The position numbers were made by a program, and so were the translations under genes. A stretch of DNA of 64,000 nt from Octopus vulgaris. Lineage: Eukaryota. The stretch spans positions 9,362,001-9,426,000 of the forward strand of contig OX597815.1 of the NCBI GenBank assembly GCA_951406725.2, in the 5' to 3' direction. Under the pieces are notes generated by a model, which was not told the DNA's origin, made no database searches, and was given only the letters and a program-made list of their open reading frames with translations. Positions 3,627 to 57,644 of this stretch are shown piece by piece; the stretch's first letter is position 1; each line of letters opens with the position of its first letter.

Positions 3627-5108
3627 TTGGGTCATCCCATTAATAATGCGGGTTTTCTTTTTCAAAATTAAGATAAAGTTCTTTTGTAATCTAAATATAC
3701 TCACCTTCATTTTCTACAATGCTCTTCCACCTATGTGGTAGACTTGCAAGGCCCCTCTTCCAAAATTCACTTGTTCCTGACGAAAGATAGTCCACTAATA
3801 CTGTTTTGACCTCATCTACAGAATTCAAATTTCTTCCATCCAAATGACTTAGAAGATTGCGGAATAAATGGTAATCAGACGGGGCAATGTTTCCCATTTA
3901 AACTGCTCCAGTCTTTGGAATGTCATCCTCGCTGTATGTGACCGAGCATTATCCTGATGGAAGGACACCATTCGTCTTGAAACCAAAGATGGTCGTTTTT
4001 CTTCTAGCGCTGACTTAAGCCTCCCAAGCTTCTCGCAGTAAATCTCCTTTGTTATCGTTTGGTTTGGGTTTAAAAGTTCAAAGTGGACTAAACCCTTCAT
4101 ATCCTACCAAACAGATAACTACATCCTGCGTAACTGAAGACCTTCTTTAGCCTGGGGTGCCGGTATTTCCTCTTTTCCTACTCACTGTCTTCGGCGCTTG
4201 AAAGTTTTATAGAGAACCCATTTCTCGTCACCAGTCACTACTTGATCCAAAAAGGGTTAATTCGTGAGACGTGACAGCAAAGAAGAGCACGCATTCACTT
4301 TCTGCGCGGGATTAGTTTCGGAAAGTTTGTGAGGAACCCATTGACCCAATTTGCTGACTTTCTGATGGTACGCAGGTACCTATTTCTTTATTACCCACAA
4401 GGGGCTAAACACAGAAGGGACAAACAAGGACAGACATAGGTATTAAGTCGGTTACATCGAACCATCGAACCCAGTGCGTAACTGGTACTTAATTTATCGA
4501 CCTCGAAAGGATGAAAGGCAAAGTCGACCTCGGCGGAATTTAAACTCACAACGTAACGCAGACGAAATACCGCAAAGCATTTCGCCAGGCGTGCTAACCT
4601 TTCTGCCAGCTCGCCGCCTTATGGTACGCAGGTACCGATGAATGGTTGAATGACCAAATGCAAGCTTCTCTGCTAGTTCCTCAACAGTTACGATGGAATT
4701 TGTTTCACCAGGGCTTGCAGGGCGTCCTCATCGAGGTCTACAGATTTTCCAAGACGAGACTCGTCTTCTAGGCTGTAGTTTTCGGCTCGAATTTTTGGAA
4801 CCACCGTTGACACTGGCTTACGCCTATTGTCCGATCCCCATAGACTGCATTAATATTCCTTGCACTTTCCGTTGCATTGTTGCTTTTATTGAACTCATAA
4901 AAGTAAAATATGCTGTCTCTTCCATTATAGCTTTGTAAAAATAACTGTTAAAATGGAACTGCACTCTTGAAAACTTGCATTAAGAATAAGGACAAGGTAA
5001 AACTATTACCTGCTTTTATGGCAAGTTGATGCAGGTAGTTTATCCCGTCCCTCTCCGACTTTTAGTTCCTGCAATTGAAAAAACCGCATAATTTATGGGA
5101 TGACCCAA
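3627..5108 (-). mobile_element. Full-length decayed mariner element interrupted by a SINE
   Basis: TIRs TTGGGTCATCCCAT...ATGGGATGACCCAA flanked by TA. Transposase motifs HQDNARSH, IAPSDYHLF, LPHRW and WVPHKL, with frameshifts. Confidence 0.93.
4381..4620 (-). mobile_element. SINE family A inserted in the mariner
   Basis: Full copy with 16-bp TSD ATGGTACGCAGGTACC at 4365-4380 and 4621-4636. Confidence 0.93.
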
Positions 5109-5747
5109 TATATATATATATATATATATATATATATATATATATATATATATATATTTGTGTGTGTGCATTTGTGCAGAGAGAGAGAGAGAGTGATGTT
5201 TATATGCGTGTGTGTGTATGAATGTATGTATATAAGATTATTTCCATTAAGATAGATACCATCCTCATCATGAAACTGCTATCATCGCCAGCATCACCAC
5301 CAATACTACCACCTGCACCAACATCACCGACACGATCACTAAAACTACCATCACCATCACTACCACTACTACCACCACCACCACCACCACCAACAACAAC
5401 AACCTCACCACCGCCGCCGCCACCAACACATTAACCTATCAGGTAATCGATCAACGATGACGGAGTACAAAGAAGCAAAGTTTGAACGTTTGTATTCTAA
5501 TGAAACAAACGATCATAACTGGAACATTAGGAAAAGTAGGAAGCAATGAGAATCCGATGATGATTAGGGGATCAATAGGGGATCCATGCCAGACAAGTAG
5601 GCAACAAAATAAGTGAATTGTAGGGCCATTTCATAGGGAAAAGGGAAAAGGTTCCACACAGAAGTGTAATGGTAGGGTTAACATGTTCCGGGCAAGTAAA
5701 CAGAGAGGAAGGAAATATTTCTCACGGAAGTAACATATCTATTATAC

Positions 5748-6134
5748 GTGGAGGCGCAATGGCCCAGTGGTTAGGGCAGCGAACTCGCGATCATAGGATC
5801 GCTGTTTCGATTCCCAGACCGGGCGTTGTGAGTGTTTATCGAGCGAAAACACCTAAAGCTCCACGAGGCTCCGTCAGGGGATGGTGGTGATCCCTGCTGT
5901 ACTCTTTCACCACAACTTTCTCTCACTCTTACTTCCTGTTTCTGTTGTACCTGTATTTCAAGGGGCCGGCCTTGTCACTCTCTGTGTCACGCTGAATATC
6001 CCCGAGAACTACGTTAAGGGTACACGTGTCTGTGGAGTGCTCAGCCACTTACACGTTAATTTCACGAGCAGGCTGTTCCGTTGATTCGGATCAACCGGAA
6101 CCCTCATCGTCGTAACCGACGAAGTGCTTCCATC
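5748..6134 (+). mobile_element. tRNA-derived SINE family B
   Basis: A-box-like TGGCCCAGTGG and B-box-like GTTTCGATTCC. Near-identical to copies at 43796 and 48618. Confidence 0.9.
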
Positions 6135-6312
6135 CATCTATTGTACACAGTCAGGTTAGAGCAGGAGGCAACAATTATGTTCACATATTTATATATTGTA
6201 TTTTAAAGTAGACTGGAATATAGTGGCAATGTTAAGAATTTTATATGTGGTATGCTACAGTAGAGTATGACATAACTATAGTGTAAGCATATTTACATTA
6301 GTTTAACAATAT

Positions 6313-56049: not shown

Positions 56050-56295
56050 AGTCAGCAGTCATTTTGGTAAATGACCGAGGTAGAAATTTGTGTAGTGGCC
56101 GTGGTAGACATAGGCACTAATGTAGGGCTTTCAACCTTTTCAAAGTTCCAAAGATCTCAATCACTGAAAGCGAAATGAACGAGGGCGATACTACAGTGTA
56201 TATATATACAGCATATAGGTCTACCGATTAAGATAAATATATTTCCAGCATCTGCGGTACCATAAAACATCTTAATTTATAGATAGTCGGCAAAT

Positions 56296-56591
56296 CGGTA
56301 CTACTAGCGAACAGTGGTCCGGTGCGCGCACTCGCGTAGTCACGCATCCGCGCTAGCTAGTCGTGACTAGTCGATCCTACAACGACTGCCTAGCAAAGTA
56401 AATCAAACACAAAATAAATAATTTGTGTTAAACAAAGTAAATAAAACACAAAAACACAAAGTAAATAATTTTTAAAGCAAAGTAAATAATATACAAAAAC
56501 ATAAAGTAAGGATCGACTAGTCACGACTAGCTAGCGCGGATGCGCGAGTACGCGAGTGCGCGCACCGGGACCACTGTTCTCAAGTAGTACC
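56296..56591. mobile_element. CpG-rich MITE-like inverted repeat
   Basis: Arms at about 56296-56378 and 56509-56591. The spacer has CAAAGTAAAT repeats. Confidence 0.75.
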
Positions 56592-56822
56592 TATTTCTTT
56601 ATTACCCACAAGGGGCTAAAGACAGAGGGGACAAACAAGGACAGACATAGGTATTAGGTCGATTACATCGACCCCAGTACGTAACTGGTACTTAATTTAT
56701 CGACCCCGAAAGGATGAAAGGCAAAGTCGACCTCGGCGGAATTTGAACTCAGAACGTAACGACAGACGAAATACGGCTACGCATTTCGTCCGGCGTGCTA
56801 ACGTTTCTGCCAGCTCGCCGCC
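56592..56822 (-). mobile_element. SINE family A, full length
   Basis: TSD TTCTCAAGTAGTACC at 56577-56591 and 56823-56837. Confidence 0.93.
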
Positions 56823-57644
56823 TTCTCAAGTAGTACCGGCAAATCAAATTTCTCAGGGAGAAATCTCAACACGAAACTGCAACGTGCTCAATGGTAGAGT
56901 TACATAAAAAAGAACAAAAAAAAAAAAGGTATCGATAATTGGAAACTGAAAAGGCAGCAATGTCCCGGATATTAATCTAGTGACTCCGTCACATTTCTTG
57001 TCTTTTATCGTCTATAATTAAACCGCACCATATCATTTGATTGAAAAATATAAAACCGAAATAATAATGATTAATAATCAACAAACAAATATATTAAAAA
57101 AAGAAACAAAGTTTCCACTGATTTTTTCCCATTCTTAGCAAATATTGAAATCTCATTGAATATTTTTCTTGTAAAAGCGCGGCATTGGATGCACAAAATC
57201 AATGAAATAAAAAACTCGATCGTCTTTCTTCAATTCAGTACAATATGGTGAATACAAAATGGACGCTCGGAAGCTATAGCGCCTTCTAATAGCGCCAGAG
57301 TGTTTGATGGTTCGCTTTAGATTGTTCAAAATTATCTAGAAAATCGTCTGTTTTTATAATCATATTTTCTAGCATAAATTACAATCTTAATTTGGATTGA
57401 CTGTTCCGAAAATTGCTACAAGCTATAATTGTATTTTTATTTTGTTCTTATAATAAATTTGAAAATAAATTTCTGCAAATTTTCTTTCTGATTCAATTAA
57501 TGTCTGTTAAAGACGTATTAATGAGGATGGCATTCAAACGTGAGGTGAATTTCTGAAAATGATGTGTGTTCCACCTCTCACTTTTCCTGCCTCCTTCCGT
57601 CTCTCTCTCTCTCTCTCTCACTATTGTTCTTTCTGTATGTGTAT

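Follow-up and report, generated by a model that had tools for sequence, protein, structure and literature searches.

Target words of an octopus SINE follow its lineages and may be carried by RNA read past its tail

Why do copies of one octopus retroposon come to lie so often against the same few letters, and is it the nicking enzyme or the RNA that picks them? The question is raised by a stretch of 64,000 nucleotides of Octopus vulgaris DNA (contig OX597815.1, positions 9,362,001 to 9,426,000; hereafter the window), which holds copies of a short interspersed element (SINE) that we call SINE-A. A first-pass annotation of the window had noticed that the target-site duplications of this element repeatedly begin with GGTA, and had offered two mechanisms: a preference of the endonuclease of a partner long interspersed element (LINE), or annealing of the RNA 3' end to the target. 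Here we report that the target word is associated with the SINE lineage, and that GGTA is typical of some lineages only.

SINE-A has the hallmarks of a retroposon: it is short and non-coding, occurs in high copy number, and shows both target-site duplications and 5' truncations. The reference copy, on which SINE positions are numbered, is 232 bp long and ends exactly at ...AAAGAAATA, without a poly(A) or repeat tail; a run of four T (T4) is absent inside it.

SINE-A insertions in the window

The copies and their flanking repeats are as follows.

3209-3620, plus strand: SINE-A dimer, positions 5-232 followed by positions 50-232; the last unit is of the TATAT lineage
4381-4620, minus strand: full-length SINE-A, young subfamily (marker AATACCTA)
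4365-4380 (3' copy) and 4621-4636 (5' copy), minus strand: 16-bp duplication GGTACCTGCGTACCAT, an exact direct repeat starting GGTAC
12351-12572, minus strand: older SINE-A
33195-33479, minus strand: SINE-A inverted at its 5' end (33195-33405 on the minus strand, 33410-33479 on the plus strand) and bearing the older marker AATCCATT
33179-33194 (3' copy) and 33478-33493 (5' copy), minus strand: 16-bp duplication GGTATTAATTATCCAG, exact, starting GGTAT, around the 5'-inverted copy
33838-34069, plus strand: full-length SINE-A, young subfamily, the reference copy
33832-33839 and 34069-34076, plus strand: 8-bp repeat AGGTATAA, overlapping both SINE ends
34305-34537, plus strand: full-length SINE-A, TATAT lineage (marker AATCCCTT)
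34287-34304 and 34538-34555, plus strand: 18-bp duplication starting TATATAAT
38090-38228, minus strand: 5'-truncated SINE-A (starts at position 94), young subfamily
38075-38089 and 38229-38243, minus strand: 15-bp duplication GGTATAGATTGAGAT, an exact direct repeat starting GGTAT
56592-56824, minus strand: full-length SINE-A, young subfamily
56577-56591 and 56823-56837, minus strand: duplication GGTACTACTTGAG(AA), starting GGTAC; 13 bp are unambiguous, the final AA belonging equally to the start of the SINE

The four long GGTA duplications are genuine: each starts at the first base after AAAGAAATA, and GGTA stands in the 5' copy too. With GGTA at 0.28% of the 4-mers in the window, at least four of eight copies would show it by chance with P ~4e-9. 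Two shorter cases that had been counted with them are less clean. The GGTATAA repeat at 33833/34070 is real but weak, being only 8 bp long and overlapping both SINE ends, and the GGTAAG at 12350 is present in the 3' copy whereas the 5' copy of this SINE reads GATAAG, so that the duplicate pair is asymmetric. Two copies had been said to enter TATA instead, and both do: the copy ending at 34537 has the 18-bp duplication, and in the dimer that ends at 3620 the tail is followed by TATATATT, with a clean duplication sought there and not found. The markers fit the words, with the young marker on four GGTA copies, AATCCATT on one, and AATCCCTT on both TATA copies.

Target words across the genome

Genome-wide counts, which cover 2.8 Gb in 227 contigs and use the exact 24-base SINE tail as query, gave 101,678 matches; the first variable place is T in 79,264 of them and C in 22,414. 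GGTA follows 51,573 of all matches, namely 48,446 of the T variants (61%) and 3,127 of the C variants (14%). Tails joined to the SINE's own position 50 number 28,509 (28%), and among the other ~73,000 tails some 23,000 enter GGTA, an upper bound that includes decayed self junctions. In the youngest subfamily GGTA follows 2,745 of 3,588 tails, self junctions included. Ahead of the SINE 5' end, at a distance of 8-16 bases, GGTA occurs 4,805 times, compared with 602 for the control TACC.

A sample of 311 sequences (1.5 Mb), drawn from 0-28 Mb of contig C1 and from the window, contained 291 unique tail-ending elements. Removal of 29 that came from loci chosen on GGTA (L031-L090) left 262 copies, a set deliberately enriched for the TAAT and C variants of the tail. 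Using a duplication score cut-off that is reached by 1.3% of mismatched pairs, we found duplications in 160 of the 262, mostly 13-18 bp long. In 85 cases the duplication begins immediately behind the tail, and in 20 more it begins one base earlier; 149 are in register, and 146 of these have enough flank for an analysis of words. GGTA is enriched at the SINE's 5' side, the side on which the first-pass annotation had staked the preference: the 5' copy starts with it at 35 of 146 sites, against a background of 0.30%. By tail variant these cases divide into 25 of 44 TAAT, 9 of 52 TAGT, 1 of 48 C variants and 0 of 2 others.

Three target words recur in the 146 sites: GGTAT (45), TATAT (39) and AGAAA (10). 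The three classes are otherwise alike, with a purine at -3 (65-90%), G rare at -1 (0-8%), and a duplication of ~15-16 bp. Where the insertion is in ordinary DNA, the landing site resembles the SINE site only over bases 0-4 past the nick and little upstream of it. Pairing over more than five bases was considered and rejected, since the match shows no excess past base 4: of 49 non-nested GG sites, 33% have T at +5. Some SINE tails end in ACA like that of the LINE described below, mostly followed by GAT and not GGT (L160, L091, L158, L151, L018); these copies possibly represent a fourth lineage word.

Words and lineages

We sorted 273 tail units by an 8-base marker that lies 60 bases upstream of the SINE end. 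Units with the young marker AATACCTA are followed by GG in 44 cases, by a self site in 35, by TA in 1 and by other sequence in 7. For the old marker AATCCGTT the figures are 24 GG, 11 TA, 5 AG, 27 self sites and 13 other, and for the old marker AATCCCTT they are 1 GG, 27 TA, 8 AG, 6 self sites and 7 other; the split between GG and TA across these two old markers has p=6e-8. Expressed for non-nested tails, GG comes first in 44 of 52 young units, 24 of 53 with AATCCGTT and 1 of 43 with AATCCCTT, and 39 of the 52 in the youngest subfamily enter GGTA. Divergence from the consensus is 2.2% for young copies and 5.5% for both old GGTAT and old TATAT copies.

When the three word labels are placed on a tree of 136 last units they need 20 changes, compared with 35.1 after shuffling (0 of 200 shuffles). 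The same association is found inside a single tail variant: among 38 TAGT copies, core columns outside the tail predict the word, with a neighbour agreement of 0.65 against 0.44 when shuffled (p=0.002). The sampled duplication starts bear out the enrichment of GGTA in some lineages only, and the TATA copies form a separate lineage with a word of its own.

Differences between the two duplicate copies

The target is the source of both copies of a duplication, and mutations that arise later affect the two equally, which makes a directional difference between them notable. In 34 of 138 in-register pairs the copies differ in bases 0-4, and the 3' copy is the one nearer to the class word 28 times, versus 3 for the 5' copy. 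Restricting the comparison to the 24 pairs with a single mismatch, the 3' copy is nearer to the lineage word in 18 and the 5' copy in 3, with 3 ties (p=0.0015), and the bias is present in all three word classes (10:2, 5:1 and 3:0). Positions 5-9 of the duplication show no such bias (13 vs 9). The simplest reading is that an RNA running past the tail carried the lineage word and was copied at the junction. At one locus (L057) a 22-bp duplication lies outside a 29-base piece of a second SINE unit; this fits a dimer RNA as template, so that dimer RNAs appear to be copied.

Self-insertion and arrays

SINE-A contains two of the words, and the window holds an array built from it.

33887-33895, plus strand: internal self-target GGTATTTCG (SINE position 50)
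from 33854, plus strand: second self-insertion site AGAAAC (SINE position 17)
34006-34014, plus strand: AATACCTAT, youngest-subfamily marker and exact reverse complement of the junction of ATA with GGTATT
6314-9813, minus strand: array of 184-bp units with 18 junctions of AAAGAAATA to GGTATTTCGTC and a terminal SINE-B tail
6297-6313 and 9814-9830, minus strand: 17-bp duplication flanking the whole array

The position 50 site begins with GGTAT and the position 17 site with AGAAA; in the fetched loci, SINE-SINE junctions fall 175 times at the former and 17 times at the latter. Self-targeting of SINE-A, which had been predicted from the GGTAT in its own 5' region, is supported by the 18 junctions of the window array, by the genome-wide count of tails joined to position 50, and by nested copies with their own duplications. 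Some of the nested copies (L083, L181) retain a duplicated 5' remnant. Most of them read positions 1-232 followed by position 50 to the end, often with a different SINE tail at the end, a form that would be expected if the new complementary DNA is linked to the homologous front part of the older copy. Insertions also occur at an antisense GGTAC in the SINE core (L142, L162, L206).

The window array, a SINE-derived satellite, is 97% uniform. The young marker is present in 16 of its units, whereas the units at either end carry an old one, and the array sits within an older SINE-B copy that bears its own 17-bp duplication.

The young subfamily is set apart by a cluster of three changes that creates AATACCTAT, and in a predicted fold (one structure) this segment pairs with the tail end and the trailer, that is, the bases beyond the tail. 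Its presence shows at the least that GGTATT followed the young source locus. As a general guide an internal complement was rejected: the old markers AATCCGTT and AATCCCTT are not complementary to their words, so that the feature is limited to the young subfamily, where it may be a by-product of hairpin correction. A guiding role of AATACCTAT is speculative.

SINE position 17 is also the junction point at L166 (3650, on the minus strand), where the sequence joined to it is not a SINE and has the end ...TTCAATAATGAAATA. This may be the tail of a family that homes to the second site; no relatives of it were found among the fetched loci.

LINEs that share the tail

34026-34069, plus strand: 3' tail common to SINE-A and Tx1-type LINEs, 36/42 identical to LINE copy L319

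The last 42-47 bases of the SINE are common to a LINE with two open reading frames (ORFs), whose ORF2 of 1149 aa has the domains Exo_endo_phos, RVT_1 and zf-RVT. We provisionally assign the partner LINEs to the Tx1 clade, from domain order and microsatellite targeting. An RTE or Penelope partner was considered and rejected, as the tail-sharing elements carry an L1/Tx1-type ORF2. In LINE copy L319 the junction is in the same register as in the SINE.

Intact copies of the two-ORF LINE are ~6.3 kb long and ~99% identical (L371-L385, L424 and L425; for example G000:C11:81247654-81255154). The element is very young and is flanked by (TATC)n on both sides, sometimes in stacks. Its junction, AATAAAGAAACA followed by TATCT, has a register equal to that of the SINE. 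It lands at TATC 36 of 42 times, whereas SINE sites starting with TA have C at that place in 2 of 42. We rejected it as the element that inserts at GG: its tail has 6,994 genome matches, and the only one followed by GG belongs to a SINE. Tx1-type LINEs sharing the tail were thus found, the intact one being specific for (TATC)n, and none among the tail-anchored loci has exactly the SINE tail; three further Tx1-like fragments were searched, and the loci retrieved, for one of them only, have different tails.

An older sister family (L391-L420) shares the upstream part of the tail with the intact LINE and sits in (ATT)n/(ATC)n. Further related tails adjoin (CT)n (L231) and (TATG)n (L261). In the L439 family, a 300-base piece consists of a non-SINE 3' region with a related tail that is joined to SINE position 50. 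A pattern derived from the L439 tail hit 34 places, 4 of them with GGTATT, and was discarded because it does not describe the family. No RNA ends were seen in the contigs matching L439.

What selects the word

The reading we favour, with moderate confidence and from sequence comparison, is that SINE-A is copied by the proteins of a Tx1-type LINE and that the word is chosen when the nicked DNA pairs with RNA beyond the tail. RNA polymerase III (Pol III) would read past AAAGAAAUA into the flank, giving the RNA a trailer that is the start of the source locus's own duplication; GGUA would then be read-through trailer and not a fixed part of the SINE. The LINE protein would bind the tail and start reverse transcription at a fixed base, and the endonuclease would nick with little specificity (a purine is usual at -3 and G is avoided at -1), the two nicks lying ~15-16 bases apart. 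As the asymmetry suggests, the freed 3' end would pair with the first ~five bases of the trailer, and near-matches would be overwritten on the 3' side. The new copy would again be followed by the same word, and the preference would be inherited along SINE lineages. Because GGTAT and AGAAA are SINE positions 50 and 17, these lineages also land in SINE copies and make dimers and arrays, the RNAs of which would again carry GGUAU; the GGTAT word may have originated with a tail-sharing family that homes to position 50.

We favour pairing with the trailer because lineages of the same age and tail variant differ in word, because the information lies only on the pairing side, and because the 3' copy is overwritten. 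In published work, four trailer bases raise the insertion of R2Ol (PMC6530143) and four matched bases suffice to prime L1 (PMC3649969).

Several observations weigh against this reading. Of the 146 sites, 52 either tie between words or fail to reach four matching bases out of five with any of the three. The tree of last units is weak, with 6 of 133 branches well supported, and agreement of core lineage and word within the C variants is not significant (p=0.076, 28 copies). At inner positions 2-4 the asymmetry is 7 vs 1 (p=0.07); moreover, the asymmetry points to a trailer at the junction, not to a trailer choosing the site, and gene conversion between copies could be the source of the 3' bias. 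The first T4 lies at a median of 113 bases beyond the tail, so that copying would have to begin inside a long RNA, and extra 3' sequence lowered the efficiency of R2Ol (PMC6530143). The genome holds several Tx1-type families whose tails are related and whose targets differ, and an endonuclease preferring GGTATTT probably exists, to judge from the L439 family: 35 of its 40 best relatives run at least 13 bases into the GGTATTTCG site. These 40 were found without the junction; the query is among the 35, and the other five are absent from a second list.

This last point feeds a serious rival, which we regard as possible but not as probable: each SINE lineage rode a different tail-sharing Tx1-type family, the word is a relaxed form of that family's endonuclease site, GGTAT came from the family homing to position 50, and the trailer merely smooths the junction. 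The L439 relatives join the SINE exactly at position 50, other tail-sharing families are specific for (TATC)n and (ATT/ATC)n, and the tail of the (TATC)n LINE is followed by GG only in that single match, a SINE. Kojima 2015 (PMC4494074) also has the endonuclease mainly setting the target, SINEU-1/2 showing a weaker form of the driver's preference. Such a succession of drivers does not account well for copies of the same tail variant and age that use different words by core lineage, nor for GG-starting sites in ordinary DNA that barely match the SINE site upstream of the nick, and no driver for TATAT or AGAAA turned up in a search that was not exhaustive. The two readings can combine. As with L1 (PMC3649969), one and the same set of five bases is subject to both endonuclease and RNA. 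Of the two mechanisms in the first-pass annotation, RNA annealing is strengthened by the 3'/5' asymmetry, the lineage-linked words and the lack of T4, while the tail-sharing family at GGTATTTCG keeps endonuclease preference a serious rival.

More tentatively, the trailer might be a heritable, RNA-written address that redirects a borrowed Tx1 enzyme, lineages gaining words without any change of protein, and AATACCTAT could let an RNA stem swap onto both target strands, like a minimal guide; we consider this conceivable rather than likely.

Recombination between DNA copies is an improbable source of the pattern, although it may contribute to the growth of long arrays. Unequal crossing-over would build the tandems of positions 50-232, and gene conversion from dimers would rewrite the bases after the tail. 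The 28% of tails in tandem-type junctions, most of which lack the 5' remnant of a nested insertion, and the uniformity of the window array agree with it, and conversion could yield a 3' bias. It cannot, however, place GGTA in the 5' copy in unique DNA, as seen both in the sampled duplications and in the counts against TACC; the 3' bias holds for TATAT and AGAAA too; and the junctions fall at two fixed bases that match target words. That GGTA is simply the last four bases of the SINE, with the target match an ordinary 3' microhomology of LINEs, is hardly tenable and as a general statement largely refuted by the fixed junction and the lineage-specific words: half of the exact tails are followed by GGTA and short 3' overlaps, from one base to several, have been described (PMC6007223), but the other half lack it, whole lineages enter TATAT or AGAAA at the same base, and tails before GAT, TGT or AAT are neither shorter nor longer.

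The share of RNA and endonuclease in choosing the landing site of non-LTR (long terminal repeat) retrotransposons is an open question, the two being inseparable in L1/Alu, where poly(A) and nicking site coincide. The tail family described here supplies passengers that are almost alike yet use three natural words, together with a LINE that is both intact and very young and with junctions in the tens of thousands. Should the trailer be decisive, flanking DNA would be the route by which target preference is inherited, which would account for SINE self-nesting and SINE-derived satellites in this genome and would bear on the steering of insertion tools based on target-primed reverse transcription.

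Other features of the window

33850-33858, plus strand: box-A-like motif at SINE position 13, a candidate by the Pol III consensus
33911-33920, plus strand: box-B-like motif GAGTTCAAAT at SINE position 74, a candidate by the Pol III consensus
62767-63999, plus strand: decayed, 5'-truncated Tx1-like reverse transcriptase region, 62% identical in amino acids to that of the intact LINE; it immediately follows the (TCTA)n tract of 62364-62770

The box A and box B of SINE-A are putative, called from the Pol III consensus. ARAGORN found no tRNA in the window, and an Rfam search of the SINE region (33000-34700) gave no tRNA match. A ribozyme or other known RNA family was likewise rejected, as the four Rfam matches in that region are below the gathering score and none is relevant. 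The 5'-inverted copy (33179-33493) has a clean 16-bp duplication; it resembles a product of twin priming.

Older SINEs at 11048-11271, 42610-42785 and 51598-51841 have positions 1-167 in common with SINE-A and end in other tails (SINE-B types), and a 147-bp unit is present twice at 41021-41311, the copies being 87% alike. The Tx1 fragment of the window (62364-63999) is without its 3' end. Together with L421 it represents another family, 58-62% identical to the intact ORF2 and with many relatives at 73-86% identity.

Comparison with known systems

L1-Tx1 is among the recently active families of octopus, and the words 'target' and 'nested' are absent from the main text of that report (PMC13282606). 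In a literature search outside of which lay most subscription journals, Repbase and supplements, we found nothing on target words of octopus SINEs or on words inherited by lineage. The parts are known separately, as Tx1-driven SINEs with target preference, read-through annealing, and duplication starts that depend on the RNA end; in SINE-A they would be combined.

The closest parallel is SINEU with the Tx1-Mar LINEs of crocodilians, which resembles SINE-A in its tie to the Tx1 clade, a target preference inside a mobile element and tandem stacking, and in which passengers can be less strict than their drivers (PMC4494074). SINEU has a small nuclear RNA head, unlike SINE-A (PMC4494074). SINE-A further differs in that the site is in its own head, the link to the LINE is a shared 3' tail, insertion is mostly into ordinary DNA at a five-base word, and the word varies by lineage.

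For read-through, R1Bm is said to anneal flank-derived bases to its nicked target. The same feature is described for R2Ol, where bases from the flank past the 3' end pair with the nicked target as in our model of SINE-A (PMC6530143). Both are autonomous and specific for ribosomal DNA, with one target set by the endonuclease, whereas SINE-A is a dispersed passenger with several lineage words.

In RTE-related SINEs, near-identical elements likewise differ in where the duplication starts according to the RNA 3' end, and base pairing was proposed; the signal there is a microsatellite within the element and covers one or two bases (PMC6007223), in contrast to ~five bases that would be taken from the flank in SINE-A. 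Kibi and Koshi, Tx1 elements of fish that are specific for microsatellites, resemble the tail-sharing LINEs in having two ORFs (endonuclease, reverse transcriptase, zinc finger) and a fixed position in the microsatellite (PMC4494074). The repeats are different, and the clade of the LINEs described here is provisionally assigned by domain order.

Lastly, L1 and Alu on T-tracts are like SINE-A in that four terminal matches prime and overlap the endonuclease site, and they present the same confound (PMC3649969). Their poly(A) is constant, whereas the trailer of SINE-A would vary with the source locus.

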